Of a DNA stretch of 64,000 nt, positions 7,083-47,217 are shown piece by piece. The position numbers and the translations under genes were made by a program. The notes under the pieces were generated by a model that saw nothing but the letters and a program-made list of their open reading frames with translations, did not search any database and was not told the origin of the DNA. Origin of the DNA: a virus (lineage: Duplodnaviria > Heunggongvirae > Uroviricota > Caudoviricetes); the IMG/VR virus record IMGVR_UViG_3300016674_000066. One strand, written 5' to 3'. Within the stretch, counting starts at the first letter, position 1. Each line of letters begins with the position of its first letter.

Positions 7083-10000
7083 ATGGCGCAATTGATGTCG
7101 ACCTCGTGCCTGAAGTTGGTCGCAAAAATCAACGAGAGAGACCAGGATGCGCTGCTCTCTCGCCTCGACGAGCTCCAGGCCCAGGGCATGCCGGCGCAGC
7201 GCGCCCAGATCCAGGCCGCCATCGATGTGCTCTCTGGCCTTCGCCGCGAGGCTGCAAACGCCTCGTCCATCCCCGAGGACCAGGACATCAACCCGGACCA
7301 GCCCGACATCAAGCGCAGCGCTGCCCGAGTCATCCCTGACTTCGTTGAAGAGAACATCGAGGACACGGAGTACCCGGGCTCGAAGTATGCGGAGTTCGAT
7401 GACGGAGCCGCGTACGTGAAGTTCTTTGCGGACAACAAGGGGGATCTGCGTGTCACGACGCTGAATACCGAGGGCTCAGATAAGGTGCGCGGGCGAGATG
7501 TGTTGCGCTGGCTTGGGCAGACGTACGGTCGCCCGATCCTGGTCAACGAGGTCGACCCTCCTGCGTCTGGCTTCTGGGACAAGATGCAGGATGAAGGCAT
7601 CATCAAGGACTGGTCCAGGGATGCGTATCGAGGCAAGACGTCTAGCTTGCCGGATACCGACATCAAGCGCAGCACCGGCAGAAGCGAGGAAGAGATCGCA
7701 GCCGCCAGGGCTGATGGCTGGACCATCGCCGACAACGACCTGCCGTCGCGAGAGGCTGCAGAGCGCATCGTCAAGCTTCGCACCAAGGGCAACAGCGTCG
7801 TCAAGCCGATGGCCGCCTGGCAAGGCGCTGAGGTGCGCGTTGTCGAGAGCGACAACCCCGGGTTCTGGGCGATCGAGGCTCGCCGACCCGACGCAAAGCG
7901 CAGCGCCGCGCGCGACATCACCCGCAGCCGCAAGCGCCAGCCATCTGAGATTTTCGGCCGAGAGATCGCGCCAGCTGCAATCCGCGCATACAAGTCACTC
8001 TCCGCTGGCGCCAAGTCGATCGTCGACGGCTGGAACGTCAACTGGTCCATGGGCCAGGGCAGGCTGCGCAACAGCAAGGACTTTGATGAGGTGGTCAAGG
8101 CCTATGAGCCGGTGCGCGAGAAGCTGCGCCAGGTGTACGGCAGCACCGTGCCGGCATTCCGAGGCGAGAAGCAGGACGGCACCGAAAGCACGGACGATCG
8201 ATTCCTGTTCTCATGGACGCCGATGCGCGACATTGCAGCCGGCTTCGCCGTCAACCGCCGCTACGGCATGCCGGCCGAGATCCCGCAGTCTAAGGTCGAC
8301 GAGCAGATCGAGGCGTACAGTAAGACGGGCATCGCCCGCCTGAATGGCTACAAGTTCGTCCGCAAAGATCCGGGCGACTACGAGCCCGACGGCCCGGACT
8401 ACTACTACATCTACCAGGGCGGCGAGATGATCACCGACGGTGACGACATCGCCCGGGCTCTGCAGCAGGAGAAGGATGAGCGCGACGCATGGATCGGCGA
8501 GTTGCGTGATGGCGGCAAGCTCTACGCCGGCAACATACCGGTTGACTCAGTGGCATTCATCCCTGTTGGCGCCAACCTGCGCCAGCCCGAGTTCGTTGCC
8601 GAGTACAACCCCCGCAAGGACGCGGCTGGCGAGATCCGCCTAAGCACCAAGCGCAACGAGCTCGGCTTCCATTCTGCTCTCGAGCGTGGCATCGAAGACA
8701 TGCAGACCAAGTCTGCTCTTGCCGGTGCCTGGAAGGCCCAGATCAAAGGCTTGGTCAACAAAGGTGCCGTGAAGCAAGACGAGGTCACCTGGTCCGGCAT
8801 TGAAGACTGGCTCGACATCCAGGATGGCAAGGTCACCAAGGATGCAATCGCCGAGTACCTGAAGCAGGGCGGCGTGCAGGTGGAGGAGGTGACGCTGGGC
8901 GCCGTGGAGACTGGGCCCCAGCTCGATGCCTGGCTCGAGAAGTGGTCAGAGGAAAACGATGGTGAAACCGCCAACGCCATCTACAACGGCCAGGCCTGGA
9001 GCTATATCCAGCGCATTGCAAAGCAAGAAGGCCACCAGGATGTTGTTGACCGCATCGAGGCTAAGGTCAGTGGTGCGGAGCCCAAGTACGGCCAGTACAC
9101 CCTGCCTGGCGGCGAGAACTACCGTGAGGTGCTGCTGACGCTGCCGCCGATTGGCGGTGTGAGGTACACCGAAGAGAACGTCATTGCCATCGACGACTCC
9201 GATGACCCGAAGCGGTCGCAATACTTTTGGCGCTTCAAAGTTCCTGGCAACGAGCTGCAGATCTCCAAGCAGGTCTACCGCACCCAAGAGGAGGCAAAGG
9301 CTTACATCCTGAAGGAGAAGCAGCCAGAACCGCCAGCAGACAAGAACTACCGCTCCAGCCACTGGGATCAGCGCAACATCCTCGCTCACATCCGCGTCAA
9401 CGACCGCGCCGATGCCGACGGCAAGCGCGTTCTGTTCGTCGAGGAGCTGCAGAGTGACTGGGGGCAGGAGGGCAAGAAGAAAGGGTTTGCAGACAAAAGT
9501 GTGAGCATGGCTGAACTGGCCAAGCAGTTCGACGAACTCAACCGAGAGCGCCGCACCCTTGAGCAGCAGATTGCGGAAGGCGACGACGCTGACCAGGCAA
9601 CTCAAGCGGCTGTTGAAAGGTCGGTTGATGTCAACCGCCAGATGGTTGCACTGTCTGACCGCATGGCCGCACTTCGCTCCGGCGTCCCCACCGCACCCTT
9701 TGTGACCAAGACCGAAGGCTGGCTCAACCTCGCCCTCAAGCGCGTCATCGCCATGGCGGTGGATGGCGGCTACGACGCAGTCGCCTTCGTCAATGGCGAC
9801 CAGTCGGCTGATCGGTATGACCTGAGCAAGCACGTCGATGAGTTGATGATAGAAAGGGATGGAGACAGCTTCAAGATTTCCATGAAGCCCATCGGCGGTT
9901 ACTACGGGGACGGCGGGCGCTGGAGCGGAAAGGTGCAAGAGCTACCAGACGTCTTGGGCAAAGAGCTTGCGGACAAGGTCGCAGCGCAGCCGGAAGGTCG

Positions 10001-13000
10001 GTCCTACATAAACGGTGTTGACCTCAAGGTAGGCGGCGAAGGCATGAAGGCCTTCTACGACAAGATCGTACCCAACGCTGTGAAAGCCCTGCTGAAGAAG
10101 GTGGGCGGAGAGCAGCTCGAGAAAGTCGGCATCCCAGACTCCAATGCTGGCCGCGAGGTTGTTGCAGCCAAGGTGCCGGGCGAAAATATGTGGGGCGTCT
10201 ACGATCGCCAGAAGGGTCAGTGGCTCGAGAGCTGGGACCGCGAGACCTACACATCTGACCCCGAGAATGCGGAGCTGACAAGCGAGAAAACGGCAAAGAG
10301 TATCGCTTCCGCGATCATGCGAGATGCCGGCGTTCTTCTGGAGCAACCCGGCTTCACCATCACCGACGCCATGCGCGAGAAGGTGGCAACCGAAGGCCTG
10401 CCGCTGTTCAGCCGCAAGCGCGACGTCACCGAGACGCCGGAGTTCCAGGCGTGGTTCGGTGACTCCAAGGTGGTGGACGCCGATGGCAAGCCGATGGTGG
10501 TGTATCACGGGACCGGCAAAGACTTCAGCGCATTCGGCGGCGGTTTTTCACCGGACCACGGGAGCGACGTTCACTTCTTCACCCCTGACCCGGATGTGGC
10601 GAATGGCTTTACCCCAGCAAGCGGCAATGGATCGGTAATTTATCCGGTCTATCTGTCGCTGCAAAATCCTGCTGAGCTTGATTTCTTTGGTGAGGACTAC
10701 GACGGAGAAGCCGTCAATGACGCGATAGACGAGGCGATCGCTGCTGGAAACGATGGCCTAATCATCACGAACATCAATGACGTGAAGGCATCGGAAATGC
10801 AGTACATCGCCTTCCGCCCAGAGCAGATCAAGAGCGCCATCGGCAACCGTGGCACCTTTGACCCAAGCGACGCAGACATCCGCCGCTCCACTGGCCGCAC
10901 CTTCACTGGTGCCGACTGGGACTCGCCCAGCGCCTCGAAGTTTGACGACCTGGTCTACAAATTCCAGGACAAGCTGATCGACACCAAGCGCGTGGTCGAG
11001 GCTATCAAGGACACGTCAGGCGCCATTGCTGACGACCTCGATGTCTACCTCCAGGAGGAGCTGTACCACGGCCGCGCCGCCAAGCGCACCGAGGACTTCG
11101 TGAACATGGAGCTCAACCCGCTGGTCGAGCAGCTGACCAAGGACGGCCTGAAGTTGGAAGACCTCGAGGAGTTCCTGCACGCCCGCCATGCGCCCGAGGC
11201 CAACAAGGTCATTGCCCAGCGCAACCCGGGCGTGGCAGGCCTCCAGGATGGCGGCTCCGGCATGAAGACGTCGGACGCCCTGGACTACATGACCACGTTG
11301 CCGGCAGACCTGAAAGCCAAGCTCGAGGCGGCAGCAGCCAAGGTCGACGACATCATCGCTCAGACCCGCAAGCTGTACGTCGACTACGAGCTCGAGAGCC
11401 AGGAGACGGTGGACGCCTGGGGCAAGATGTTCCAGCACTACATCCCGCTGCAGCGCGAAGACAAGGATGGCAGCGGCAGCCCGGGCCTGGGTCAAGGCTT
11501 CAGCGTCAAGGGCAAGGAGACCAAGGGCCGCACCGGTTCAACCCGCAAGGTGGTCGACATCCTGGCCAACATCGCCATGCAGCGCGAGAAGGCGATCGTG
11601 CGCGGCGAAAAGAACCGCGTGTCTCAGGCCCTGGTTGGCCTGGCCAGTGCCAATCCCAATGAGGGCTTCTGGACCGTCGACGAGGTGCCCACCGAGCGCG
11701 TGTACGACGAGCGCCTGGGTGTTGTGGTGGATCGCCCTGACCCGATGTGGAAGGCGCGCGAGAACACCATGGTTGCCAAGATCGTGGGGCCTGACGGCAA
11801 GGTCAAGGAGCACGCCGTCGTCTTCAATGAGGAGGACGAGCGAGCCATGCGGATGGCCAAGTCCCTGAAGAACCTGGACGCCACCCAGCTCGAGGGCCTA
11901 CTCGGCGTTAGCGCCAAGATCAGCCGCTACTTCGCCGCCATCAACACCCAGTACAACCCGGTGTTCGGCGTGGTCAACCTAGTGCGCGACGTCCAGGGCG
12001 CCGTGCTCAACCTGTCCTCCACTCCACTCGAGAACGACCGAGCCAAGATCGCCAAGGACACAGCATCCGCGCTGCGTGGCATCTATGGCGACGCCCGCGC
12101 CGCACGCAAGGGCAAGAACCCGTCGTCGGCCTGGGCGCAGCTCTGGGATGAGTTCCAGGAAGTCGGTGGACAGACCGGCTACCGCGACCTGTTCAGGACC
12201 AGTGCCGAGCGCGCGGAAGCCATCAAGAAGACGCTGAACCCGGATGCCTGGGCCGACAGCAAGCTTGGAAAGATCTTCACCGCCAACGGCGCACTGAAGG
12301 TGCCCATGGCCCAGGCCAAGCGCGGTGCCGGCTGGATCTTCGACTGGCTGAGCGACTACAACCTGGCCATGGAAAACGGCGTGCGCCTGGCGGCCTACAA
12401 GGCTGGTCTGGAGCGCGGGATGTCCAAGGAGCAGGCAGCATCGGTCGCCAAGAACCTGACGGTAAACTTCAACCGCAAGGGCCAGGTGAGCCAGCAGGCC
12501 GGCGCCATGTACGCCTTCTTCAACGCCTCGGTGCAGGGCACGGCGCGCATCGCCCAGACCATCTTCACCATGGAGCCTGGCAAGCCCAAGACCATCCGCC
12601 TGAGCCCCTTCGGCAAGAAGGTGGTGTACGGCGGCATGCTGGTTGGCTCCGTCCAGGCTCTGGCCCTGGCGGCTGCCGGCTTCGGCGACGAAGACCCGCC
12701 GCAGTTCGCCCGCGAGCGCAGCCTGATCATCCCGCTGATGAACGGCAAGTACATGACCATCCCGATGCCGCTGGGCTTCCACGTCATCCCCAACATCGGG
12801 CGCATCACCACCGAGTTCGTGTTGAGCGGATTCAGCAAGCCGCACGAGCGCGCACTGCAGCTGTTCGGGCTGTTCGCCGACACGTTCAACCCGATCGGCA
12901 ACGCCGGCATGTCCATGCAGACCCTGGCCCCCACGGCGCTTGACCCGCTGGTGGCGCTGACCGAGAACCGCGACTGGACCGGCAAGCCGATCGCCCGCGA

Positions 13001-13604
13001 GTCGATGAACCCAGCCACCCCTGGCCACGCCACGGCGCGCGACACGGCAACCGCCCTGTCCAAGTTCCTGGCCGAGGCCATCAACACGGCGTCCGGCGGC
13101 AACCAGTACGTGGCAGGCGTCTTCTCGCCCAGCCCGGACCAGATCGACTACCTGATTGGCCAGATCACCGGCGGCGTAGGTCGCGAGCTCTCGAAGGTTG
13201 AACAGTCATCCCTGGCCGCGCTGCGTGGCGAGGAGCTGCCCACCTTCAAGATCCCGCTGGTGGGTCGCTTCGTTGGCGATGCCAAGCAGCAGGCCAGCGA
13301 GGGCTCAGCGTTCTACGCCAACACCGAGCGCATCAACAAGGTGGAGACGGAGATCAAGGGCCTGCAGAAGGACGGCAAGTACGCCGAGGCGGCCGAGCTG
13401 CGCCGCACCAACAGTGACGCCTACCTGATCGCCGTGGCCAACCAGGCCGAGCGCCAGATCCAGAAGCTGCGTTCTGAGAAGCGAGAGCTGATCAAGAACA
13501 ATGCGCCGCGCGAGCAGGTGCGCGCCGTCGAGGAGCGCATCACCGCAGTGATGGCCCGTCTGAACCGTGCCGCCGAGAGACTAAGGGAGCAGCAGGGCAA
13601 CTGA
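7083..13604 (+). CDS. Second giant polyvalent protein (2173 aa) with repeated DIKRS(A/T)xR linkers, a PARP-like ART domain and a C-terminal coiled coil
   Basis: Uninterrupted ORF with high GC3. The motif VVYHGTGKDF...VHFFTPDPD...NPAELDF (about nt 10490-10690) is a paralog of the ART-like domain in the first giant protein. The D-I/A-K/R-R-S motif occurs four times. Confidence 0.75.
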   Translation: MAQLMSTSCLKLVAKINERDQDALLSRLDELQAQGMPAQRAQIQAAIDVLSGLRREAANASSIPEDQDINPDQPDIKRSAARVIPDFVEENIEDTEYPGSKYAEFDDGAAYVKFFADNKGDLRVTTLNTEGSDKVRGRDVLRWLGQTYGRPILVNEVDPPASGFWDKMQDEGIIKDWSRDAYRGKTSSLPDTDIKRSTGRSEEEIAAARADGWTIADNDLPSREAAERIVKLRTKGNSVVKPMAAWQGAEVRVVESDNPGFWAIEARRPDAKRSAARDITRSRKRQPSEIFGREIAPAAIRAYKSLSAGAKSIVDGWNVNWSMGQGRLRNSKDFDEVVKAYEPVREKLRQVYGSTVPAFRGEKQDGTESTDDRFLFSWTPMRDIAAGFAVNRRYGMPAEIPQSKVDEQIEAYSKTGIARLNGYKFVRKDPGDYEPDGPDYYYIYQGGEMITDGDDIARALQQEKDERDAWIGELRDGGKLYAGNIPVDSVAFIPVGANLRQPEFVAEYNPRKDAAGEIRLSTKRNELGFHSALERGIEDMQTKSALAGAWKAQIKGLVNKGAVKQDEVTWSGIEDWLDIQDGKVTKDAIAEYLKQGGVQVEEVTLGAVETGPQLDAWLEKWSEENDGETANAIYNGQAWSYIQRIAKQEGHQDVVDRIEAKVSGAEPKYGQYTLPGGENYREVLLTLPPIGGVRYTEENVIAIDDSDDPKRSQYFWRFKVPGNELQISKQVYRTQEEAKAYILKEKQPEPPADKNYRSSHWDQRNILAHIRVNDRADADGKRVLFVEELQSDWGQEGKKKGFADKSVSMAELAKQFDELNRERRTLEQQIAEGDDADQATQAAVERSVDVNRQMVALSDRMAALRSGVPTAPFVTKTEGWLNLALKRVIAMAVDGGYDAVAFVNGDQSADRYDLSKHVDELMIERDGDSFKISMKPIGGYYGDGGRWSGKVQELPDVLGKELADKVAAQPEGRSYINGVDLKVGGEGMKAFYDKIVPNAVKALLKKVGGEQLEKVGIPDSNAGREVVAAKVPGENMWGVYDRQKGQWLESWDRETYTSDPENAELTSEKTAKSIASAIMRDAGVLLEQPGFTITDAMREKVATEGLPLFSRKRDVTETPEFQAWFGDSKVVDADGKPMVVYHGTGKDFSAFGGGFSPDHGSDVHFFTPDPDVANGFTPASGNGSVIYPVYLSLQNPAELDFFGEDYDGEAVNDAIDEAIAAGNDGLIITNINDVKASEMQYIAFRPEQIKSAIGNRGTFDPSDADIRRSTGRTFTGADWDSPSASKFDDLVYKFQDKLIDTKRVVEAIKDTSGAIADDLDVYLQEELYHGRAAKRTEDFVNMELNPLVEQLTKDGLKLEDLEEFLHARHAPEANKVIAQRNPGVAGLQDGGSGMKTSDALDYMTTLPADLKAKLEAAAAKVDDIIAQTRKLYVDYELESQETVDAWGKMFQHYIPLQREDKDGSGSPGLGQGFSVKGKETKGRTGSTRKVVDILANIAMQREKAIVRGEKNRVSQALVGLASANPNEGFWTVDEVPTERVYDERLGVVVDRPDPMWKARENTMVAKIVGPDGKVKEHAVVFNEEDERAMRMAKSLKNLDATQLEGLLGVSAKISRYFAAINTQYNPVFGVVNLVRDVQGAVLNLSSTPLENDRAKIAKDTASALRGIYGDARAARKGKNPSSAWAQLWDEFQEVGGQTGYRDLFRTSAERAEAIKKTLNPDAWADSKLGKIFTANGALKVPMAQAKRGAGWIFDWLSDYNLAMENGVRLAAYKAGLERGMSKEQAASVAKNLTVNFNRKGQVSQQAGAMYAFFNASVQGTARIAQTIFTMEPGKPKTIRLSPFGKKVVYGGMLVGSVQALALAAAGFGDEDPPQFARERSLIIPLMNGKYMTIPMPLGFHVIPNIGRITTEFVLSGFSKPHERALQLFGLFADTFNPIGNAGMSMQTLAPTALDPLVALTENRDWTGKPIARESMNPATPGHATARDTATALSKFLAEAINTASGGNQYVAGVFSPSPDQIDYLIGQITGGVGRELSKVEQSSLAALRGEELPTFKIPLVGRFVGDAKQQASEGSAFYANTERINKVETEIKGLQKDGKYAEAAELRRTNSDAYLIAVANQAERQIQKLRSEKRELIKNNAPREQVRAVEERITAVMARLNRAAERLREQQGN

Positions 13605-16983: not shown

Positions 16984-17352
16984 TTACATCAACTTGCTGA
17001 TCTGATCCTGGAGCGCGATCTTGCGGTCGTGGACCTTGCCACCAAACGCGAGCGCCTCGATTGCATCGGCCTTGGTCATGCCGTCAGCCATCTTTATGAC
17101 GATGCTGTACAGAAGGTTTGCAACACTGCCAACCATCGCCTTGACGAACCCACCATCTTCTTCATTGGTTGCGCCGACAATGTGGCCAACCATCTCCATC
17201 ACCTGATTTGACTCGAATGCAGCAATGCTCAGCCGCTTGAACTGCTCGCCCCGAACACCAGCCGACTCGAACATGTCGCTGATACGGCGAAGCTCTTCTT
17301 CGAGCTTGGCCTTGATTTCTTGATCCATGTAGAACTCCTGTTGCGTGATCAA
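16984..17352 (-). CDS. Hypothetical protein
   Basis: ORF track. Confidence 0.45.
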   Translation of the reverse strand: MITQQEFYMDQEIKAKLEEELRRISDMFESAGVRGEQFKRLSIAAFESNQVMEMVGHIVGATNEEDGGFVKAMVGSVANLLYSIVIKMADGMTKADAIEALAFGGKVHDRKIALQDQISKLM

Positions 17353-17408
17353 ACTATAGCAGAAAAGGTTGATGGCGCAACAGGATGTTGCTACAAAAAC
17401 GACGAAAT

Positions 17409-20077: not shown

Positions 20078-20116
20078 TCCTTTGAAAAGTTGAGCCCCCA
20101 GTATACAACAAAATGT
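20078..20116 (-). terminator. Hairpin terminator or attenuator downstream of ssb
   Basis: Perfect 12-bp stem GTTGAGCCCCCA/TGGGGGCTCAAC, followed on the minus strand by TTTTC. Confidence 0.5.
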
Positions 20117-20132
20117 TGGGGGCTCAACAAAA

Positions 20133-23766: not shown

Positions 23767-23842
23767 TTGAACTCCTGTTGGTGGTTGAGTGACTGCAGTC
23801 TAACACAAAATGTTGGCCAGTCAACACAAAGTACCGGCCAAA

Positions 23843-24118
23843 TCAAATTTTTTTTGCGGTCAGTTCAAACATCTCGACGGACCTGCGGCCACGGGTGTCG
23901 CAAGCCTTCTCGTTGCACACGCGCACTGCGCCGGTCTTGGCCATGGATGAGGTCAGCTTGCTGACAGTGGAGGGGTGCAGGCCTGTGACCTGGGCGATGT
24001 CAGACCTGGAGAATGGGCCGCGCACCATCCTGGCCAGCGCGTGGGCAAAGGTGATGTGGGTGACTCGTGCTGGTCTTTGCTTTGACATGGCGTAATTGTA
24101 TGACAAAGCGTTATACAT
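23843..24118 (-). CDS. HTH DNA-binding protein; candidate repressor or regulator (the start may be the internal MSKQRP)
   Basis: Helix-turn-helix SRSDIAQVTGLHPSTVSKL. Confidence 0.55.
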   Translation of the reverse strand: MYNALSYNYAMSKQRPARVTHITFAHALARMVRGPFSRSDIAQVTGLHPSTVSKLTSSMAKTGAVRVCNEKACDTRGRRSVEMFELTAKKI

Positions 24119-24130
24119 GGAACAGAAAGT

Positions 24131-24207
24131 TGGAGCGCCCGGAAGGATTTGAATCCTCGACCTGGTGACTAGAATTCACTTGCTCTATCCAGCTGAGCTA
24201 CGGGCGC
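24131..24207 (-). tRNA. tRNA-Arg (anticodon TCT)
   Basis: Cloverleaf read by hand. Acceptor stem GCGCCCG/CGGGCGC is perfect; D-arm is GCTCAGCTGGATAGAGC; anticodon loop is ATTCTAG; CCA is encoded. The T-stem has one mismatch. Confidence 0.65.
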
Positions 24208-25830
24208 ATGTTGACGGTGGCCGGTGCTGATCTCCGGCTTAGCGAAATCAGATCAAGTCAACCAAGACAACTTGCTTGGCAACCCATCGCCACAGAACTT
24301 TGCGCATCAGCCTGCGCATTCACCATCACATCAGCGGGCCGGGCTTGATACCGACTCAGGAAGTCATCGAGCGTGGCCGCCGATCACAAAGTCACGACGG
24401 TTGGGCCTCCTGCCTCACGGCTTGGCGTGTCCTTCCACGCTGCCGCTGGTGTGATGGTGCCGGTTACGCGATCCGGCGACAACGTGCCGATCAGTCGCCT
24501 GTGTGCGTGGCGACCGCTCGACCGTGACCGTTTTCAGACCCAGCGCTCCTACGCACAGGAGAGGGGCTGGATCGTAGAAAGTTTGCCGGTTACGTATCGT
24601 CCGGCACCGGGGCAAGGACGGCGAACCCCGATCGTTGACACATCTGCGTGCCGTCAAGCTGATGGTGCCAGTCGCACTGCCAGGCCATTGGGCAACTCGA
24701 AAGCCACCCGCACAACCGCATCGGTCCCGCAGCAAATGCTGTACGCGGACTGGAACTCCGTCAGGCTTTCGCCTTCACCATCAAGTGTGACGACTGACTC
24801 AGACCGATGGGCGGCTGTGGCTAAGCACCCATCATGCATAGCATCAATCGTCACGCTTGATGGCCCGTTACTCACGGCACATCAAGGATGTCTTTCCATC
24901 AGTCAGAACCTGTTGGCCGGTGTTCACCGCACTCTAACGATATGGCGTTTTCGCATTGCCCGCCCAGGACCGGTCGCCTGTCGAGTGACACCCTTCGTGG
25001 ACATTTATAGACCGTCTTGAAGGATGAAGTCATCCAGTCTTTTCTGTCTGGCAAGGGCGATAGGACTCGAACCTATGACCCCAGGGATCAAAACCCCGTG
25101 CTCTACCAACTGAGCTACACCCCACCATCAAGTGACGACCGCCCTACTATGCCGAGGGCCCCGGCGGAGCGATCCCAGCGTTTCAACACGATCGTCGCTT
25201 GATGGCCCTATCGAAGCAGGATCACCAAGGAGAGTTTTTCAATCCTCTCTGCCCCAGATGCTTGGGCCTTACCGCCGTGCTCGCCCGCTTTCAGATTCAT
25301 CGTCTTCGGTACTTTGCGCGCCGAGGCGCCGCTTACCTACTGGCTTCACCTTACTTGCTTGACAGTCCGCACTCTTTGATACGCCAGGCCGGAATCGAAC
25401 CGACTCATCGCCACCGGTATGACGACGTGCTCCAACACACTCCAGGCGCGGGCCGCAGCGGTATCCAGCCACTGCGGCTTGATCAGTCATCATGAAGCCT
25501 CACCGGCCCGCTGCATCCCGACTTACCCTCGTCCGTCGAGACCGGGCATTCCCGGTTACTTCGCGTTAGGGGTGCCGGATCGGCTTCATCATGACTGACT
25601 CAAGTCTTCGTGCTCACAGGCCGTGGATACCACTGGCCACCTCAGCTCGCACGGAGAATGACCCGTGCCAATTGCGTTTGCAACCGCAGCCTCGGAGGTG
25701 AACACGAAGGCTTGATGGCCCGATAACGGGGGCCAGTCGGCTAAGTCAGTGTGTTGACCGCTTCAGCTCGCGGCAGGAGTCCGGGCCACTACGCCCCCGC
25801 ACACACCACACGGTATGAACCATGGGTGCG
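24208..25830. ncRNA. Leader of about 1.6 kb with no coding potential, containing repeated structured RNA-like modules and tRNAs
   Basis: No ORF with plausible codon usage. Recurrent motifs include GCTTGATGGCCC (3 copies) and CACCATCAAGTG (2 copies), and there are long-range helices with compensatory changes. Confidence 0.4.
25049..25124 (-). tRNA. tRNA-Gln (anticodon TTG) with a U1·U72 terminal mismatch
   Basis: D-arm GCTCAGTTGGTAGAGC; anticodon loop TTTTGAT; perfect T-arm ATAGG-TTCGAGT-CCTAT; CCA encoded. The acceptor stem forms 6 of 7 pairs, including 2 G·U. Confidence 0.55.
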
Positions 25831-25831
25831 A

Positions 25832-25859
25832 GTATACACACATTTTTTGCTACACCAAC
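25832..25859 (-). promoter_or_regulatory. Leftward sigma70-like promoter (P_L-like): TTGGTG-N16-TATACT
   Basis: Hexamers read on the minus strand; the operator palindrome CCAACATTTTGTTG overlaps the -35 element. Confidence 0.4.
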
Positions 25860-25984
25860 ATTTTGTTGAGTAAATGTTGTGCTGCGGCCACACCAAGAAC
25901 CGGGGTCTGACAGAGAGACCCGGAGCCGGTTGCCAAGCTCGCCTCAATGAGGCGCTCAAGAAAGATTGCCACACAAAAAAAGTG

Positions 25985-26014
25985 TTGGCAAGGCAACAAA
26001 AAGATATGTAGAAT
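25985..26014 (+). promoter_or_regulatory. Rightward sigma70-like promoter (P_R-like): TTGGCA-N18-TAGAAT
   Basis: Hexamers and spacing read directly. The half-sites AAAAAGTGTTGGC and GCAACAAAAAG flank and overlap the -35 element. Confidence 0.45.
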
Positions 26015-26085
26015 CAGCGCAGTGCAGGCGGATACTAGCATGCACGTACGTGGTTCTGTGACCACTATCACCGAAGGAGTAGCAG

Positions 26086-26451
26086 TTGAATACCCATCAA
26101 ACCAGCGCATCGCCCGCGCCGGAAACCATCTTCCGCGTCCGCGCCTCAGACCCAGTGACGAGCGTCATGGCTGCAGAGTCTGCCGAGATGTTCGCCGGCA
26201 AGCACAAGGACCGCATCCGGCTCGCCTTGACAAAGCTCAAGTCCGCAACGGCGCACGACATTGCCAGGGTCACCGGCCTGACTGTCGTGCAGGTTGACCG
26301 ACGCCTGCCAGAGCTCAAGCGCGATGGCGTCGCAGATGTTGTCGAGGCATCGCCTGGCGTTGATCTTCTGAGGGATGGGTTCCGTGTGTGGGCCCTGAAA
26401 AAAATTTCGACCGAAGAGCAACAGGAAGTTGCCGAGGCAACAGGAGTTTGA
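26086..26451 (+). CDS. Winged-HTH protein (TTG start); the first gene of the rightward operon
   Basis: RBS GAAGGAG; HTH HDIARVTGLTVVQVDRRL. Confidence 0.5.
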   Translation: MNTHQTSASPAPETIFRVRASDPVTSVMAAESAEMFAGKHKDRIRLALTKLKSATAHDIARVTGLTVVQVDRRLPELKRDGVADVVEASPGVDLLRDGFRVWALKKISTEEQQEVAEATGV

Positions 26452-26454
26452 CTG

Positions 26455-26916
26455 ATGAGCGCAGCAGAAAAATACAAACCGCTCATCGACGAACTTACCA
26501 AGGTGGTAAACGCAACGGAGCTGGAACTCCGTTCTCTCGCAGCCATTCAGCAGCTGGTGGCAGAGCTGGATGCTGCCTCCAAGAAGAAGGTCAAGAAGCA
26601 GGTGACGCCTGGATTCGAGAAGTTCTGGGCGGCATGGCCAACCAACTCACGCAAGGTCAACAAGCAGGGGTGCCTGACGAAGTGGCTGGCCGCCGGCCTC
26701 GAGTGCCGCGCATCCGAGATCGTCGAGCACGTCGAGGCCTGCAAGATCGGTCGCGACTGGGTCAAGGACTCCGGCGCATTCATTCCTGCGCCGCTGGTCT
26801 ACCTCAATCAGGAGCGGTATCTGGCACCTCCGCCGCCACCCCCGAACCAGGCTGGCAGCCTGGCCAACATCAAGTACAGCAAGGACGCCTTCGACAACCA
26901 TGGCCACCTCTATTGA
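26455..26916 (+). CDS. Hypothetical protein (153 aa); possibly the replication-initiation partner of the DnaC-like protein
   Basis: ORF track; the assignment rests on gene position. Confidence 0.45.
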   Translation: MSAAEKYKPLIDELTKVVNATELELRSLAAIQQLVAELDAASKKKVKKQVTPGFEKFWAAWPTNSRKVNKQGCLTKWLAAGLECRASEIVEHVEACKIGRDWVKDSGAFIPAPLVYLNQERYLAPPPPPPNQAGSLANIKYSKDAFDNHGHLY

Positions 26917-27703
26917 AAGCCTCGTCATGACCGTGGATCTCGGCGAGAGGGAGCGCTCGTGCGAGAAGCATGGCCAGTACATCTCGTCCGGCAAGAAGTT
27001 CACCGTGGGCAAGGGGCGCGAGGTGTGGACTATGTGCCCCGGCTGCAGAGATGAGATGGAGTCTATGGCCGAGACGGCCAAGCAGGAGCTCACCCTGCGC
27101 AGCCGGCAGCAGGAGCTCGAGAAGAAACTGAACCAGACCGCCATACCGAAGCGGTTCCTGGACCGTGGCTTCGACAACTGGGTGGCGGCCAACGACGCCC
27201 AGGTCAACGCGCTTCGCATTGCCCAGGAATACGTGGCCAACTTCGACAGCCACCACGCCAACGGCAAGAGTCTCATCTTCTCCGGCGGCCCAGGCACCGG
27301 CAAGTCGCACCTGGCCACGGCCATTCTGCGCGGCATCCTTCCCAGGCATGTTGGCGTCTACCTGACCTTCATGGGGATGATCCGCCTGATTCGCGAGACC
27401 TGGCACCCGTCCTCCACCAGGAAGGAGTCCGAGGTCATTGCCGACCTTGGCACGCTGCCGCTGCTGGTCATCGACGAGATCGGCGTGCAGTACGGCACCG
27501 ACGCCGAGCACACCCTGTTGTTCGAGGTGATGGACCGCCGCTACCGAGACCAGCTCCCGACCATCCTGTTGACCAACCAGGACACCGCAGGCTTCAAGCG
27601 CTTCGTCGGTGACCGCGTGTACGACCGGCTGCGCGAGACCGCTCGGTGGGTCAGCTTCGACTGGGACAGCTACCGCGCGCGGGCCAGGAGGGAGCAGCAA
27701 TGA
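26900..27703 (+). CDS. DnaC/IstB-like AAA+ helicase-loader ATPase with an N-terminal CxxC...CxxC zinc finger
   Basis: Walker A IFSGGPGTGKSHLATAI; Walker B LLVIDEIG; sensor LLTNQ. Confidence 0.8.
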   Translation: MATSIESLVMTVDLGERERSCEKHGQYISSGKKFTVGKGREVWTMCPGCRDEMESMAETAKQELTLRSRQQELEKKLNQTAIPKRFLDRGFDNWVAANDAQVNALRIAQEYVANFDSHHANGKSLIFSGGPGTGKSHLATAILRGILPRHVGVYLTFMGMIRLIRETWHPSSTRKESEVIADLGTLPLLVIDEIGVQYGTDAEHTLLFEVMDRRYRDQLPTILLTNQDTAGFKRFVGDRVYDRLRETARWVSFDWDSYRARARREQQ

Positions 27704-28077: not shown

Positions 28078-28328
28078 TCGACCACGAGCAGCACCGGGAG
28101 ACCATGGTGTCTCACTTCGTGATGATGGTGCAGATCGACGCCGACTATGCGCGCGCTGCCGTTCGCGAGTATGTGGCTCGCCCAGGCTGCCTGTTCCCGC
28201 AGATCGCGAAGGATGTGAAGAGCCGACTCGATCTGCTGGGCATCACACCTGAGCCGCCCCAGGATGAGCCCTGGTTTCTTCAAGCGCCAGATCGCAATGG
28301 CTGGCGATTCAAACCCGCAGCACCATGA
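28074..28328 (+). CDS. Hypothetical protein (84 aa)
   Basis: ATGA-type overlap. Confidence 0.4.
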   Translation: MIDHEQHRETMVSHFVMMVQIDADYARAAVREYVARPGCLFPQIAKDVKSRLDLLGITPEPPQDEPWFLQAPDRNGWRFKPAAP

Positions 28329-28798
28329 GCGAAGTCATCCTCATCAAGACGCCGAATGGCAGCCTTGTCCCAGCCGATGAAGAGAGCCAAGAGAGGGTTA
28401 AGAAGATCAAGACCGGGGCTGCTGTGCGATGCAAGATTGCGCAGATGCGAAACCCCCAGTTCCACAAGAAGTTCTTCGCTTTGATCAAGTATCTGTTCGA
28501 CATCTGGTCGGAGTCCATGCCGAATCAGACGTACCGTGGCGTCGAGGTGCGGCCGTCGTTCGAGAAGTTCCGCGAGAACCTGATCATCATGACGGGAAGG
28601 TTTGACGCCTACTACAACATCTTCGGCGACGTTCGCCTTGAGGCTCACAGCATTAGCTTCGCCAACATGGAGCAGGGCGAGTTTGAGAAGTTGTACTCAG
28701 ACGTCATCGACATTGGCCTCTCCAGGATCATGAATCGCCCAGACCTGACGCCAGAGAAGGTTCGCCGCCTGGTCGACCAGCTCCTCCAGTACGACTGA
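28325..28798 (+). CDS. Hypothetical phage protein (157 aa)
   Basis: ORF track; translationally coupled to the upstream gene. Confidence 0.5.
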   Translation: MSEVILIKTPNGSLVPADEESQERVKKIKTGAAVRCKIAQMRNPQFHKKFFALIKYLFDIWSESMPNQTYRGVEVRPSFEKFRENLIIMTGRFDAYYNIFGDVRLEAHSISFANMEQGEFEKLYSDVIDIGLSRIMNRPDLTPEKVRRLVDQLLQYD

Positions 28799-34894: not shown

Positions 34895-34963
34895 TGTGGT
34901 TATATGTTGCAATGTTTTTGTTCTGTGTGCAACAATTACTTCAACGCAAACACAGAGGTCGAT
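34895..34963 (+). promoter_or_regulatory. Cassette promoter/operator module, copy 1
   Basis: TTGCAAtgTTTTTGTTCTGTGTGCAACAATTAC...CGCAAACACA..ATG; homologous to the modules at 37.4, 40.7, 44.2 and 47.1 kb. Confidence 0.5.
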
Positions 34964-36667: not shown

Positions 36668-37006
36668 ATGAAAAAACTCGCCATCGCCATTGCCGCCCTC
36701 GCGCTTTCGGCTGCATCACACGCCCAGTCCTGGACTGGCAACGACCTGCTGACTCGCCTGCAGTCAGACGAGCACGGCTCACGCATGGCCGCCCTTGGCT
36801 ACGTGCGCGGCATCGCTGACGCGCTGCAGGGTGAGATCTTTTGCCCGCCCGACGGCGTGACCTATGGCCAGGCCTACGACGTCGTGGCCAACTGGCTGAC
36901 CGTCAATGCTGCGCAGCGGCACCGTGGAGCTGGGCCACTGACGATCGTTGCCCTGGCATCAACCTGGCCCTGCAAACAGCAGCGGCAGCAGAAAGGTGGC
37001 GCCTGA
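36668..37006 (+). CDS. Secreted hypothetical protein carrying a signal peptide
   Basis: MKKLAIAIAALALSAASHAQ. Confidence 0.5.
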   Translation: MKKLAIAIAALALSAASHAQSWTGNDLLTRLQSDEHGSRMAALGYVRGIADALQGEIFCPPDGVTYGQAYDVVANWLTVNAAQRHRGAGPLTIVALASTWPCKQQRQQKGGA

Positions 37007-37477: not shown

Positions 37478-37723
37478 ATGGCAACAAGGACTTTTGTCGT
37501 ACAGGTTGAGGCAAGAAAAGACATCGCCGACCTGGGCGACATCATCGCCAACCGCGCTTACACCATCGACGGCGTCGAGAACGCGACAGCTACCGAGATA
37601 ACGGTAGCAGTGGCCGATGACGCGGAGCTCAGCGTCGACATGGTCGATGACTGGCCCGACACGTTCCTGGAGCGGCTTGGCCGCGCGATCGACGGCTTCG
37701 TCGAGGGCTGGCGTGGACATTGA
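37478..37723 (+). CDS. Hypothetical protein (81 aa)
   Basis: ORF track; RBS AAAGGAG. Confidence 0.45.
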   Translation: MATRTFVVQVEARKDIADLGDIIANRAYTIDGVENATATEITVAVADDAELSVDMVDDWPDTFLERLGRAIDGFVEGWRGH

Positions 37724-37967
37724 GATCCGTGCGTGCGGCATCCCGTGCGTTGCGCGGGTGACCCACTACGTCGTCAAGAAGGGAGACCCGTCCTGCAAGG
37801 ACTCCGACCTGGACTTCTACGGGTACACGGAGCTCGAGTACGACATCCTGGATAGACGACTTCGACCGGCCTCATGGCTGGAGAGGAAGATCAGAGAAAC
37901 AAAAGGCGCCGACGACCTTGTCCGTGAGCAGGTGTTGGCCGGATTGGAAGGTGATGACCATGAGTGA
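37713..37967 (+). CDS. Hypothetical protein (84 aa, GTG start)
   Basis: ORF track. Confidence 0.4.
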   Translation: MDIEIRACGIPCVARVTHYVVKKGDPSCKDSDLDFYGYTELEYDILDRRLRPASWLERKIRETKGADDLVREQVLAGLEGDDHE

Positions 37968-38319
37968 TTGCGACAGCTGCAGCGGGTGCCCGGCATCCGC
38001 AGACCCCGGGACTTGCGAGGATGCATCGAAGCAAGTGCTCTCCCATGGCCTGGTCCAGTACACGATCGAGAGCGATGTTGATACGTGTCGCGGGTGCGTC
38101 GCCCTTGGAGACGGTGACCTGTGTCAGGAGCTCTCAGCCAAGCACAAGTGCGCGACCAACAGCGTCATCTTTGCGCGCGTCCCATCCCGGCTTTCGCCGT
38201 CCGACTTCGATGAGCTGAAGAAGAGGGCCATCGAGCTGCATGCTGGCGAGTGGCTGCATCACTGGGGTCGCCTGGTCGAGGATGAGGTTCTGCGCCGCAA
38301 CGGGGTGATCGTCAAATGA
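37954..38319 (+). CDS. Cys-rich hypothetical protein
   Basis: CDSCSGCPASADPGTCED. Confidence 0.4.
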   Translation: MTMSDCDSCSGCPASADPGTCEDASKQVLSHGLVQYTIESDVDTCRGCVALGDGDLCQELSAKHKCATNSVIFARVPSRLSPSDFDELKKRAIELHAGEWLHHWGRLVEDEVLRRNGVIVK

Positions 38320-38960
38320 AGTTCTCGTTTGACCCGTCCTACGTGCCGCTGCTGTCTCGCTTCATGGCGAAGCACGACATCCGCTACTACCTCAACGGCA
38401 TCCGCGTGGAGCCGTCCGAAAAGGGTGGCGTCTACCTGGTGGCCACCAACGGCCACATCATGCTGGTGATCCACGACGCCTCCGGCACCTTCGAGGGTGA
38501 CGCCAAAAGCTATGCATCCATCAGGCTCACGCCGTGGTTCATTTCGGCCTGCAAGTCTCGCGACGTGAAGTCCTACGTGCTGCGCGCACACCTGGATGGC
38601 AAGCGCTTGTACATCGGGCCGGAGTCCGGCGAGCACCACCACACCCTGGAGAAATTCGTTCAGGGCGGGAGCCCGTTCATCGAAGGCAACTTCCCAAACT
38701 GGCGACGCCTGCTGCCGGACTTCTCAAGTCTGGAATCCGGCGGCTTTGTCAACGGTGGCGTGGCTACCAGTAGCCTGGTCCCGTTCCACACGAGCAGTAA
38801 GTACTCGGCTATCAGGCTTTGGCGCGCAACTGGTGCAACCGATGGGCAGGCCACCTACGTGCAAATGGTCGACATGCCGGAGGCGCTGGGGATCGTGATG
38901 CCGACGCGCTGCGACTACCCGCACCAGTTCATCAAGCACATGCCAGGAGCAGGAAAGTGA
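38316..38960 (+). CDS. Truncated DnaN-like sliding-clamp protein (214 aa; domain II plus part of domain III)
   Basis: DIRYYLNGIRVEPSEKGGVYLVATNGHIMLV matches DnaN RYYLNGMLFE...TVATDGHRLAV; NFPNWRRLLP matches FPDYRRVLP; the C-terminal IVMPTR matches VVMPMRL. Confidence 0.6.
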   Translation: MKFSFDPSYVPLLSRFMAKHDIRYYLNGIRVEPSEKGGVYLVATNGHIMLVIHDASGTFEGDAKSYASIRLTPWFISACKSRDVKSYVLRAHLDGKRLYIGPESGEHHHTLEKFVQGGSPFIEGNFPNWRRLLPDFSSLESGGFVNGGVATSSLVPFHTSSKYSAIRLWRATGATDGQATYVQMVDMPEALGIVMPTRCDYPHQFIKHMPGAGK

Positions 38961-39181
38961 ACAATCGCGAGCGTCAGATCAGGAAGCTGATCTCTGACTC
39001 TGGCCTGGAGTGCTCCGCACTCCGGTTAGCCAAGAGTGGGCACTACAAGGCCACGGTCGTGTCGGAGTCCGGCAGGGCCGCCCAGGCCATGTTCTCAGGG
39101 ACGCCGAGCGATCGGCGTGGCGACCTCAACAAGAAGTCCTCCCTGAGGCATTTTGCAAAGACTGGGGTGATGCGTGGCTGA
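38957..39181 (+). CDS. Hypothetical protein (74 aa, GTG start)
   Basis: ORF track. Confidence 0.35.
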   Translation: MNNRERQIRKLISDSGLECSALRLAKSGHYKATVVSESGRAAQAMFSGTPSDRRGDLNKKSSLRHFAKTGVMRG

Positions 39182-40689: not shown

Positions 40690-40769
40690 GTGTGGGTATT
40701 GCTTGACGCTTTTTGTTCTGTCGTCAACAATTCCTTCACCGCAACACAGTTTGTTTCAGGAGTACCGCA
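40690..40769 (+). promoter_or_regulatory. Cassette promoter/operator module, copy 3
   Basis: CTTGACgcTTTTTGTTCTGTCGTCAACAATTCC..CACCGCAACACAG...AGGAG..GTG. Confidence 0.5.
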
Positions 40770-41168
40770 GTGAAGATCGAACTCAACATCGGCCTCGACG
40801 TCAAGGGCAGCACCAACACCCAGGTGCAGCGCACCGAGCGTGCCCGCAAGGCCTTGGACATCATCCGCGCCGCCGGCCTGCGCTATCAGGTCGAGCGCCT
40901 GGCCAGCCAGTACGAAGACAACGAGGGCGTGGTTCACCTCGAGGACACCCTGGTGGTCGAGGCTGACGTGCCGCCCATCGGTGGCGAGCGCACCATCAAC
41001 GCCCTGGCGTACCAGATCTGCATCGAGATCCAGCAGGAGTGCATCGCCGTCTACAACCATGTCCGCCAGCGCGGCGAGCTGATCGGCCCGAATGCCAGCT
41101 CCTGGGGCTCGTTCGACATCAACTTCTTCCGGTTCTACAGCGAGGCGGCCCTGCCGCGTGCAGCATGA
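40770..41168 (+). CDS. Hypothetical protein (GTG start)
   Basis: ORF track. Confidence 0.45.
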   Translation: MKIELNIGLDVKGSTNTQVQRTERARKALDIIRAAGLRYQVERLASQYEDNEGVVHLEDTLVVEADVPPIGGERTINALAYQICIEIQQECIAVYNHVRQRGELIGPNASSWGSFDINFFRFYSEAALPRAA

Positions 41169-41575
41169 GTGCGCAGCAGATACAGGGGAGGCTGCAAGCC
41201 CATCACGATCACGGATGGCTTGTAATCGAATCAGACTGCGGTGGGCTGTATATCAAGGTCGAGAAAGGCTCTGCCGCATCAAAATCGATGCCGGCCGCCC
41301 GCCGTCTGGTGGCTTGCTGGAATGCGTGCGAAGGCATCAGCACCGAGTCGCTGGAGCGAGGACCGCTGTCTAAGGCATTCGAGCTTGAGCAGGACCGGGC
41401 AGATTCTGCTGGGCGCCAGCGCGACGAACTGCTGGCGGCGCTGAATCAGGTGCGAGGCGAAGTGCAATACATGGCCAGCGGCATGACGCACTCGACGTGG
41501 CGAACCAAGCAAGCGCAAGATGCGATGGCAAATATCGACGCAGCCATCGCCAAGGTGAAAGGCGGTACGGCATGA
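41165..41575 (+). CDS. Ead/Ea22-like hypothetical protein (a paralog of 32315-32812)
   Basis: ARRLVACWNACEGISTESL and ...KVKGGTA. Confidence 0.5.
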   Translation: MSAQQIQGRLQAHHDHGWLVIESDCGGLYIKVEKGSAASKSMPAARRLVACWNACEGISTESLERGPLSKAFELEQDRADSAGRQRDELLAALNQVRGEVQYMASGMTHSTWRTKQAQDAMANIDAAIAKVKGGTA

Positions 41576-41799
41576 CAAAGAACGGCTGCTACAACCGCGC
41601 CCCCTTCCTCCCGGGCATCCACCTCCAGAAGCTGGAGGCCGGGCGGGGTGGGTTCGTGAACATCAAGACAATCTTCATCCCTCACCGGATGACGACCGAG
41701 TGCCAGTACAGCCGAGACCCCATGGGCCTCGGGCAAAAAGACCTCGGCTGTGTCGGGTGCAAGTGGAAAGCAGGAGAGCAGGATGCCGGCCCAACTTAG
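41572..41799 (+). CDS. Hypothetical protein (75 aa)
   Basis: ORF track. Confidence 0.4.
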   Translation: MTKNGCYNRAPFLPGIHLQKLEAGRGGFVNIKTIFIPHRMTTECQYSRDPMGLGQKDLGCVGCKWKAGEQDAGPT

Positions 41800-42037
41800 T
41801 GAAAAGGCGAAGGCGCAGATCATGGATGGGGTTGCTAGCTTCTTGGGTGCAGGAGGTGGGGCGATTAAGTTCAACGGGATCTCTTTTAGTAAGTCAGGCG
41901 ATGTGTTTCGCGTAGGGTTTTGCCACAACGGGGTCGAGATTGCATTCGAGCATGTTTCGGGTGCGAGGCTTGATCTCGGCGACATCATTCATGTCAACGG
42001 TTTTGATGGTTCCATGGGTTTGGAGATTTCAAATTGA
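41783..42037 (+). CDS. Hypothetical protein (84 aa)
   Basis: ORF track, internal start. Confidence 0.35.
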   Translation: MPAQLSEKAKAQIMDGVASFLGAGGGAIKFNGISFSKSGDVFRVGFCHNGVEIAFEHVSGARLDLGDIIHVNGFDGSMGLEISN

Positions 42038-44207: not shown

Positions 44208-44234
44208 AGCCCCGCCTGAGTGTGGGGTTTTTCT
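44208..44234 (+). terminator. Rho-independent terminator
   Basis: CCCCGCCTGAGTGTGGGG followed by TTTTT. Confidence 0.6.
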
Positions 44235-44304
44235 TCATTTAACTTGCAACATTTTGTTGTTGCGTCAATAATTTCTACATCGCAACGCAAACAGGAGTTC
44301 ACCA
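44235..44304 (+). promoter_or_regulatory. Cassette promoter/operator module, copy 4
   Basis: TTGCAACATTTTGTTGTTGCGTCAATAATTTC..CGCAACGCAAAcaGGAG..ATG. Confidence 0.55.
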
Positions 44305-47134: not shown

Positions 47135-47149
47135 CCCTACTTTTTTGTC

Positions 47150-47217
47150 GGGATATCTTGCAACTTTTTGTTGTGCGGTCAATAATTTCATCACCGCAAC
47201 ACAAAACGGAGAGCAAG
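47150..47217 (+). promoter_or_regulatory. Cassette promoter/operator module, copy 5
   Basis: TTGCAACTTTTTGTTGTGCGGTCAATAATTTC..CACCGCAACACAAAacGGAG..ATG. Confidence 0.55.

Follow-up and report, generated by a model that had tools for sequence, protein, structure and literature searches.

A short phage-encoded β-clamp homolog that appears to keep the client-docking pocket and lack the ring-closing segments

We analysed a 64,000-nucleotide stretch of DNA (the window) from an uncultured tailed phage (IMG/VR record IMGVR_UViG_3300016674_000066). It carries a gene for a 214-amino-acid (aa) protein related to DnaN, the bacterial β sliding clamp, which we call the mini-clamp. Sequence comparisons indicate that the mini-clamp consists of the equivalents of β residues about 126-249 and about 318-366, and that domain I and roughly residues 250-317 are absent. 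By the same comparisons, the pocket through which the clamp docks its clients was kept by evolution while the ring-closing apparatus was removed. We consider it an even call that a client-binding module was made by excising exactly two ring-closing segments and works without forming a ring: it would either bring hijacked host clamp-binding proteins to phage DNA with no need of a clamp loader, or deprive the host clamp of its partners (the δ wrench, Hda or MutS/MutL, for example, could be trapped). Our leading, still tentative reading is the DNA-associated version, in which a non-ring, “pocket-only” clamp derivative would act as an adaptor that captures host clamp-binding proteins.

A family of short clamp homologs and its anatomy

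Compared as a single sequence with PDB chains, the mini-clamp matched β clamps at E ~1e-4, with aa 14-50 aligned to β residues 143-178 and aa 100-182 to residues 215-298. The central clamp domain (Pfam PF02767) was the sole DnaN domain detected, and its score was sub-threshold (18.7 bits; gathering score, 27). The DnaN model TIGR00663 gave 22.8 bits compared to a cut-off of 137.65. A family profile matched E. coli β at E = 1.2e-17, with profile positions 16-192 on β residues 142-302. Judged by these alignments, the similarity to DnaN is weak for the single sequence and decisive at the family level. AlphaFold2, run on the alignment of close relatives described below (A1), returned a confident model (mean predicted local distance difference test score, pLDDT, 85.9; predicted template modelling score, pTM, 0.84). 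DSSP assigned to this model two β-α-β-β-β units (aa 1 to about 121), a turn at FPNW and a single β-α-β-β-β unit (aa 139-194); the predicted fold is a clamp fold.

An earlier note on this DNA, made from the letters alone, had described a truncated DnaN-like clamp. The PDB matches, the family profile and the confident model indicate that this likeness is real and beyond chance. The open reading frame (ORF) had been placed correctly from start to stop codon, and all four of the quoted motifs lie in its product: RYYLNGIRVE (aa 23-32), VATNGHIMLV (aa 42-51), FPNWRRLLP (aa 126-134) and IVMPTR (aa 193-198). GC content at the three codon positions (0.56/0.45/0.82) was typical of coding sequence within the window.

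Close relatives in a large protein database formed 26 clusters, almost all of 209-272 aa. The profile built from these clusters (A1) recovered 288 representatives at E < 1e-30 from a library clustered at 50% identity. Among the 171 family sequences collected, 150 were no longer than 260 aa; the median was 231 aa, and the profile match began near the N-terminus. We found relatives encoded on 306 viral contigs. In all of the 80 viral loci that were fetched, the ORF spanned the whole profile and stopped 5-15 residues beyond it. Both ends, a start at the domain I/II boundary and a stop shortly past the VMPxR strand, were kept in 80/80 of these loci and in nearly all of the top 150 representatives. 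The family thus forms a length class of ~200-260 aa, encoded by phages or prophages.

The mini-clamp also matched phrog_3007 (E = 2.6e-21; aa 16-200 on profile positions 16-187 of 190). Cultured carriers of the family were Pseudomonas phages vB_PaeM_USP_18/25, D14E, TC7, zjk6 and Riah, Burkholderia phages Bcep781 and Bcep43, Xanthomonas phage Rb1, Caulobacter phages RW, RLK, KcrB and GB2A, and Vibrio phages 1.115.A/B. By tblastn, identity to the copies in cultured phages was 26-32%, and at most 32%. The closest viral models in BFVD were proteins of 185-266 aa, including some from Rhodococcus and Gordonia phages, and full-length phage DnaNs (350-390 aa) ranked below them. At rank 29 we observed a weak structural match (A0A6J7W9M3_1; TM score, 0.45) to a segment of a 1394-aa phage protein named “large polyvalent protein-associated domain”. 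If this match is real, ejected polyvalent proteins may contain a clamp-like module as well.

Between the mini-clamp and a 97%-identical relative there were 8 synonymous and 7 non-synonymous codon changes (ratio of non-synonymous to synonymous change, pN/pS, ~0.27), and the pocket positions described below were unchanged. The large uniform family, the fixed ends and this ratio argue that the mini-clamp is neither a chance ORF nor a local truncation. A non-functional, decaying fragment of a once full-length phage dnaN would account for a protein shorter than DnaN and for old annotations that say “fragment”. It would leave unexplained the identical ends, the 288 clusters, the strong conservation of specific surface residues, the low pN/pS and the translational coupling of the gene within an operon, and we regard it as highly improbable. 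Uniform family architecture and purifying selection also ruled out a local truncation or pseudogene. The gene is not a one-off truncation, as the family is large and uniform and had already been noted in phages in 2011.

Several GenBank and RefSeq records name members of this family as RusA-like Holliday junction resolvases. This label stands on phrog_3007, on Bcep781 gp15 (NC_004333.2, 10433-11014), on Bcep43 gp15 and in Xanthomonas phage Rb1. A Pfam scan found neither RusA nor another nuclease family, even at E ≤ 10, and the predicted fold is that of a clamp. The authors of the Bcep781 record themselves annotated gp15 as “DNA Pol III b subunit fragment”, and the true RusA of that phage is gp22. 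We give the resolvase reading practically no credence; it was ruled out by the missing RusA signature, the clamp fold and the real RusA elsewhere in Bcep781, and the name is a propagated mis-annotation.

We then mapped the mini-clamp onto E. coli β, using the MG1655 sequence checked against every residue named in PMC11139829. On β residues 1-125 the family profile scored −1.2 bits, no meaningful match. This score and the start at the domain I/II boundary agree with the absence of domain I reported in the earlier note. The remainder comprises a complete equivalent of domain II, the interdomain linker, a half-domain and a tail (Table 1). The isolated half-domain, searched as a hidden Markov model (HMM) with HMMER, scored 13.1 bits on β residues 314-366, 5.2 bits on residues 250-313 and ~0 on the four halves of domains I and II. 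With hhalign and a 112-sequence Enterobacterales DnaN alignment, the probability was 94.6% for the second half of domain III (E = 7e-8), 5.7% for the first half and <1% for the other halves. The database search with E. coli DnaN had returned mostly Enterobacterales sequences of limited diversity. A more diverse DnaN profile, in which 75 Burkholderiales dnaN genes were combined with E. coli and 10 Enterobacterales sequences, put the second half at 95.9% (E = 6e-9) and the first at 37.7%.

The “part of domain III” of the earlier note can thus be refined to the second half (~318-366), and its IVMPTR segment is the equivalent of the C-terminal strand of DnaN (M195 = M362, P196 = P363, R198 = R365). 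The full-length HMMER alignment extended into β residues 250-302, and a β4/β8 deletion chimera matched the score of the second half against E. coli alone. The two hhalign comparisons clearly favoured the second half over both this chimera and the first half of domain III as the source of the half-domain. We attribute the residual likeness to the first half to the internal pseudo-symmetry of clamp domains.

In β, the dimer interface draws on domain I (I78, F106 and R103) and domain III (I272, L273, E298 and E304) (PMC11139829). All of these residues fall in segments that are absent from the mini-clamp. Because both sides of the interface are deleted, we infer that the mini-clamp could neither form a canonical β2 ring with itself nor insert into a host β ring. 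This weakens, for canonical rings, two of the functions raised in the earlier note: an alternative ring and poisoning of the host clamp by joining it. The mini-clamp also falls outside DnaN as defined by TIGR00663 (PF00712, PF02767 and PF02768; ~360-380 aa), and it has no ring-closing interface. It does not have the two complete domains of PCNA and gp45 either, its second domain being a single β-α-β-β-β unit by DSSP.

The docking pocket and what it may be used for

Clients of the clamp pocket carry QL[SD]LF-type motifs and include Pol III α, the clamp-loader δ subunit, Hda, Pol II/IV/V and MutS/MutL. The pocket comprises subsite I (R152, L155, T172, G174, H175, R176, L177, P242, R246, V247, V360 and M362) and subsite II (H175, N320, Y323, V344, M362, P363, M364 and R365) (PMC11139829). 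We assessed conservation over 169 family members, mostly ≤50% identical to one another. Equivalents of the domain II residues were R152 (R23 in the mini-clamp; R in 99% of the family), L155 (L26; L in 95%), T172 (T44; T in 80%), G174 (G46; G in 100%), H175 (H47; H in 85%) and L177 (M49; M in 52%, hydrophobic). Those in the linker were P242 (P127; P in 95%) and V247 (position 132; V in 75%), and linker residue P134 was kept in 95%. Those on the last strand were M362 (M195; M in 99%), P363 (P196; P in 93%), M364 (M in 58%) and R365 (R198; R in 76%). On the half-domain helix, the subsite II positions held N (N320) in 62% and Y (Y323) in 71% of members. V344 had no clear equivalent in the family.

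Eight of the 15 mapped pocket positions were among the top 20 of 200 conserved columns (hypergeometric p ~1e-5). Mean conservation was 0.74 in the pocket compared to 0.41 overall, a value reached in 0 of 100,000 permutations. The mini-clamp itself has equivalents of R152, L155, T172, G174, H175, L177, P242, R246, V247, V360, M362, P363 and R365, and by sequence the pocket is present. No part of the family is more conserved than the client-binding pocket, and for this reason a clamp mimic that redirects or interferes with the partners of the host replisome is the best-supported class of function. This part of the earlier proposal stands, and the part in which the mimic joins a canonical ring does not.

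We searched the window for the partners that such a protein would need. No polymerase-sized ORF was found in the 64 kb: the only ORFs of at least 500 aa encode two giant proteins, the terminase and the portal. The ~14-18 kb of genome beyond the window correspond to tail and fibre genes in close relatives of 78-82 kb. The ORF sizes, the PHROG hits and these relatives suggest that the phage lacks its own DNA polymerase and depends on host Pol III. A clamp loader was likewise not found among the window ORFs. The earlier suggestion that the protein serves a phage polymerase therefore finds no polymerase to be served. A strict clamp-binding motif was absent from the 134 coding-like ORFs of the window, which rules out a phage-encoded client carrying such a motif; the clients would thus be host proteins.

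Charge sets the family apart from DnaN. The isoelectric point (pI) of the mini-clamp is 9.0. In the family core the median is 8.9, and 85% of the values exceed 7.5; the corresponding figures are 5.25 for E. coli DnaN and 6.1 for the equivalent E. coli fragment. Kazlauskas and Venclovas associated elevated pI and the lack of a loader in viral clamp homologs with direct DNA binding, as in UL42 and UL44 (PMC3201878). We also observed a C-terminal FtsK_gamma winged helix (PF09397; E 1e-13 to 1e-20) in six longer representatives from separate 50%-identity clusters (P0115, P0118, P0120, P0134, P0152 and P0161) and in one viral locus (L024:2440-3363); in this subclade the domain follows a Pro/Ala-rich linker. 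By Rosetta-stone reasoning, this fusion says that at least one clade would work attached to DNA by non-encircling means.

Tails in the family were variable and held recurrent short motifs. A near-identical LPGQQPSDAAP occurred in or near the tails of divergent members (P0013, P0021, P0023, P0033, P0034, P0038, P0062, P0068, P0085, P0104, P0107, P0115 and P0152). In many tails an hPxW[LMV] motif followed MPxR at a short distance, and 51 of 145 ended in -AA-like termini reminiscent of ssrA-type ClpX degrons. Protein-binding motifs, degrons and the imprint of a DNA-level element are candidate explanations.

In the mechanism that we favour, the mini-clamp would be made from an early or middle operon. 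Its retained pocket would bind host clamp-binding proteins, and it would not be loaded as a ring. It would associate directly with DNA by way of its basic surface; in one subclade, the fused FtsK-gamma winged helix would provide the contact. The result would be a loader-independent docking site that re-targets host replication or repair factors for a phage without its own polymerase. We infer client binding by the pocket, the monomeric or non-ring state, DNA binding and the choice of the client that matters.

The same pocket evidence fits a soluble decoy, a sponge that would titrate host clamp-binding proteins off DNA. Candidate targets are clamp-loader δ, Pol III α, Hda, MutS/MutL and clamp-targeting SocB-type toxins, and host replication, mismatch repair or an abortive-infection response would be shut down or skewed. 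The protein lacks everything needed to encircle DNA. The gene lies amid small accessory or host-takeover genes, with a SAM lyase heading the next operon and a Rap1a-like gene upstream, and its position is moron-like in Bcep781, a phage with its own polymerase. Caulobacter phages carry family members, and SocB is a Caulobacter toxin that acts through the clamp pocket. Because δ binds a monomeric β variant ~50-fold more tightly than the dimer (PMC11139829), a monomeric pocket could compete well. A soluble sponge, however, would need neither a basic pI nor a recurrent winged-helix fusion, both of which point to DNA association, and stoichiometric titration of abundant partners would require high expression. 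We favour the DNA-associated adaptor because of the charge and the fusions, and we consider the decoy unlikely, though worth keeping in view.

The mini-clamp could also assemble with itself into an alternative clamp; the earlier note had proposed an alternative ring. The half-domains of two molecules would complement each other into a full pseudo-symmetric domain, giving a three-domain arc, and two such arcs could close a ring that would be a genuine processivity factor. Each clamp domain is internally a pseudo-dimer of two β-α-β-β-β units, the half-domain has a weak but real similarity to the first half of domain III (37.7%; 5.2 bits) that reflects this symmetry, and four copies of 1.5 domains make six, the size of a clamp ring. 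However, AlphaFold2 folded the monomer confidently, including the half-domain (pLDDT 84-93). The ring would have an in-plane two-fold axis with pockets on either face, and it would depend on a homotypic contact between two copies of domain II, which to our knowledge occurs in no known clamp. The phage encodes neither a clamp loader nor a polymerase. A basic pI is, moreover, typical of non-ring clamp-fold proteins (PMC3201878). We regard the alternative clamp as improbable.

Several observations weigh against the pocket-only adaptor. The mini-clamp and its nearest relatives have A150 in place of N320 and S153 in place of Y323, a degenerate subsite II, and the pocket of the mini-clamp may have shrunk to subsite I. 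R176 is not conserved in the family (I48 in the mini-clamp). The pocket motifs are also a hallmark of DnaN and make the homology detectable in the first place, and part of their conservation may reflect fold constraint. FtsK-gamma fusions make up ~3.5% of representatives and probably form a single clade, and it is the pI that would have to carry the case for direct DNA binding. No fixed gene partner was found over 38 lineages, the best neighbour cluster reaching 10/38. The gene is present in phages that encode Pol I and is isolated in Bcep781, which fits an accessory or host-manipulation role better than that of a replisome part.

Genomic setting

Terminase, portal, capsid, SU10-type adaptor and lysis genes mark the window as a phage genome. 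No near DNA match to cultured phages was found, and its terminase was ≤42% identical to that of any cultured phage, which ruled out a near-identical cultured phage. A leftward module encodes RecT, an exonuclease and SSB. The rightward replication module is of the lambda type (Table 1); the mini-clamp gene is 10 kb away from it, in a run of ~15 small genes.

Because its start and stop codons overlap those of both neighbours, the mini-clamp gene is predicted to form a translationally coupled trio with them. Neither neighbour is a conserved partner of the mini-clamp family. The upstream Cys-rich gene had no match in PHROG or PADLOC. Against PADLOC-DB, the mini-clamp protein and its two coupled neighbours had no match at E ≤ 1, which ruled out membership in this catalogue of defence and anti-defence systems.

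Four copies of a conserved σ70-like promoter repeat (direct-repeat family D1) head successive rightward operons. Each cassette comprises TTGCAA, 17 nt with a TTTTGTTG core, AAYAAT, a conserved CACCGCAACACA leader, a GGAG ribosome-binding site and ATG. The first copy heads the mini-clamp operon, and the second heads the operon that follows. The placement of the gene within a repeated cassette and outside the replication module, as described in the earlier note, agrees with these four repeats and with replication genes at 26.4-28.8 kb. Conservation of the spacer and leader hints at a common regulator or RNA element. Within the leftward gene block, another repeat family, CAAAATGTTG...CAACA, occurs at 17352-17385, 20099-20132 and 23796-23829; a relation to the promoter cassettes is possible.

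Table 1. Coordinates of features in the window and of segments within the mini-clamp.
Feature	Position	Strand or direction	Remarks
Initiator, lambda-type replication module	26455-26916	rightward	
DnaC-like loader, replication module	26900-27703	rightward	
NinB/Orf, replication module	28325-28798	rightward	
Promoter repeat copies (D1)	34896-34953, 40691-40748, 44232-44289, 47146-47203	+	from alignment
Signal-peptide Rap1a-like protein (PF18602)	36668-37006	+	upstream of mini-clamp
YuA_Gp49-like protein	about 37713-37967	+	
Upstream Cys-rich small gene	37960..38319	+	ATGA overlap with mini-clamp start; 119 aa in relatives; gene call L003 6578-6937
Mini-clamp gene	38316..38960	+	214 aa plus stop; ATG at 38316, TGA ending at 38960
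Mini-clamp, complete domain equivalent to β domain II (predicted)	38316..38690 (aa 1-125)	+	HMM alignments to E. coli β 142-249; DSSP; conservation over 169 members
Mini-clamp, interdomain linker FPNWRRLLP (predicted)	38691..38717 (aa 126-134)	+	equivalent to β F241-P249, including subsite I P242, R246, V247
Mini-clamp, half-domain, second half of β domain III (~318-366) (predicted)	38718..38909 (aa 135-198)	+	ends in GIVMPTR strand; HMM, hhalign
Mini-clamp, C-terminal tail	38910..38957 (aa 199-214)	+	without DnaN counterpart; pLDDT about 59-60
Downstream 74-aa gene	38957..39181	+	GTGA overlap (GTG start); phrog_2089, E = 1e-6, function unknown; L003 7575-7799
S-adenosylmethionine (S-AdoMet) lyase (PF23780), anti-restriction type	40713-41168	+	first gene of next operon

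The Pfam labels of the accessory genes were taken from the gene calls of a 91-98% identical relative (L003). The only stretch of this region that did not align to the relative was 41175-42025 (L003 9400-10347), where L003 carries an HNH_3/AP2 homing-endonuclease-like gene (234 aa); for this reason we regard the stretch as a variable insertion hotspot. The two giant ORFs (+ strand, 30-7070 and 7083-13604; 2346 and 2173 aa) look like polyvalent virion or ejected proteins. The first showed DarB-like antirestriction, minor-head and endolysin families at ~aa 160-440 and a NUDIX hydrolase at ~aa 884-1036. Between the leftward recombination and the rightward replication modules, ~2 kb (24118-26086) held no ORF with a coding-like bias in third-position GC content and had the lowest GC content in the window (0.579); a role as a divergent regulatory region or as an origin is possible.

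We clustered gene neighbourhoods over 38 lineages of viral loci. An endonuclease was recurrent (10/38), and other recurrent neighbours were a DNA methyltransferase, primase, helicase, RecE-like and other exonucleases and CI-type repressors; this clustering ruled out a fixed partner gene. In Bcep781, which has its own Pol I, gp15 stands alone on the opposite strand within the head module. Because of the lack of a fixed neighbour and this placement, the mini-clamp gene behaves as a mobile accessory gene of DNA metabolism, unlike a fixed subunit of the replisome.

DIRYYLNG[IFV], a peptide pattern derived from the phage family, was found in 79 cases in genome contigs (L089-L168), of which 75 were full-length chromosomal dnaN genes of Burkholderiales and 4 were mini-clamps in prophage-like contexts. 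This pattern fits a Burkholderiales-type host for the phage lineage. Relatives of the mini-clamp also came from Rhodoferax, Roseateles, Achromobacter and Pandoraea.

Relation to known clamps and significance

Short phage homologs of Pol III β were noted in the 2011 survey of Kazlauskas and Venclovas (PMC3201878). Those grouped in phrog_3007 (Bcep781 gp15, the Pseudomonas phage 73-like phages, vB_PaeM_USP_25 and Caulobacter phage RW) belong to the same family and share its length class and both ends. Nothing fundamental sets the mini-clamp apart from them; it is a divergent member in an uncultured phage of the SU10-adaptor type. Compared to E. coli DnaN (PDB 1MMI/2POL), it has 214 instead of ~366 aa, lacks domain I and the first half of domain III, is basic (pI 9.0 and 5.25, respectively), carries an extra C-terminal tail and falls below Pfam and NCBIfam cut-offs.

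Other processivity factors are more distant. PCNA and gp45 of T4/RB69 have two complete domains and form head-to-tail trimers that are loaded by a clamp loader, whereas the mini-clamp has 1.5 domains and in sequence resembles bacterial β, not PCNA or gp45. The herpesviral factors (UL42 of herpes simplex virus, HSV; UL44 of human cytomegalovirus, HCMV; BMRF1 of Epstein-Barr virus, EBV; PF-8 of Kaposi's sarcoma-associated herpesvirus, KSHV) share the clamp fold and elevated pI, but they have two complete domains and no sequence-level homology to the mini-clamp. They partner the virus's own polymerase, which the phage in the window appears to lack, and their DNA binding and processivity have been shown experimentally, whereas those of the mini-clamp would follow from its sequence; the likeness is one of functional analogy. 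Gp168 of Staphylococcus phage Twort, bound to β in PDB 7EVP, and gp8 of phage N4, which acts against the δ subunit, are small inhibitors that bind the host clamp or its loader and have no relationship to the clamp themselves. The mini-clamp is a clamp derivative and would instead compete for clients, with interference with clamp-dependent host replication as a possible shared outcome.

A literature search for functional studies of truncated phage DnaN, clamp decoys or clamp-based host takeover found nothing beyond the 2011 survey, and no solved structure of a short clamp form was found. A “clamp-like” match to YfjB/HerB proved to be an unrelated ParB-like protein. The family is therefore known but uncharacterised, and has never been studied experimentally. 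Relative to the papers searched, four points appear to be new: domain III is represented by its second half alone and both interface halves are deleted, conservation centres on the pocket, the family is basic, and one subclade is fused to FtsK-gamma.

The existence of this large, experimentally untouched family would not astonish a specialist. The analysis corrects a propagated mis-annotation (phrog_3007) and gives a precise, testable anatomy to proteins so far mentioned in passing. The β clamp is a central hub of bacterial replication and repair and an antibiotic target through the same pocket. A pocket-only phage protein would serve as a probe for the host clients that matter to phages and as a compact scaffold for screening pocket ligands. 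If our reading is true, the family would represent a widespread and so far unrecognised takeover of the replisome or of repair by mimicry of the pocket of a hub protein.

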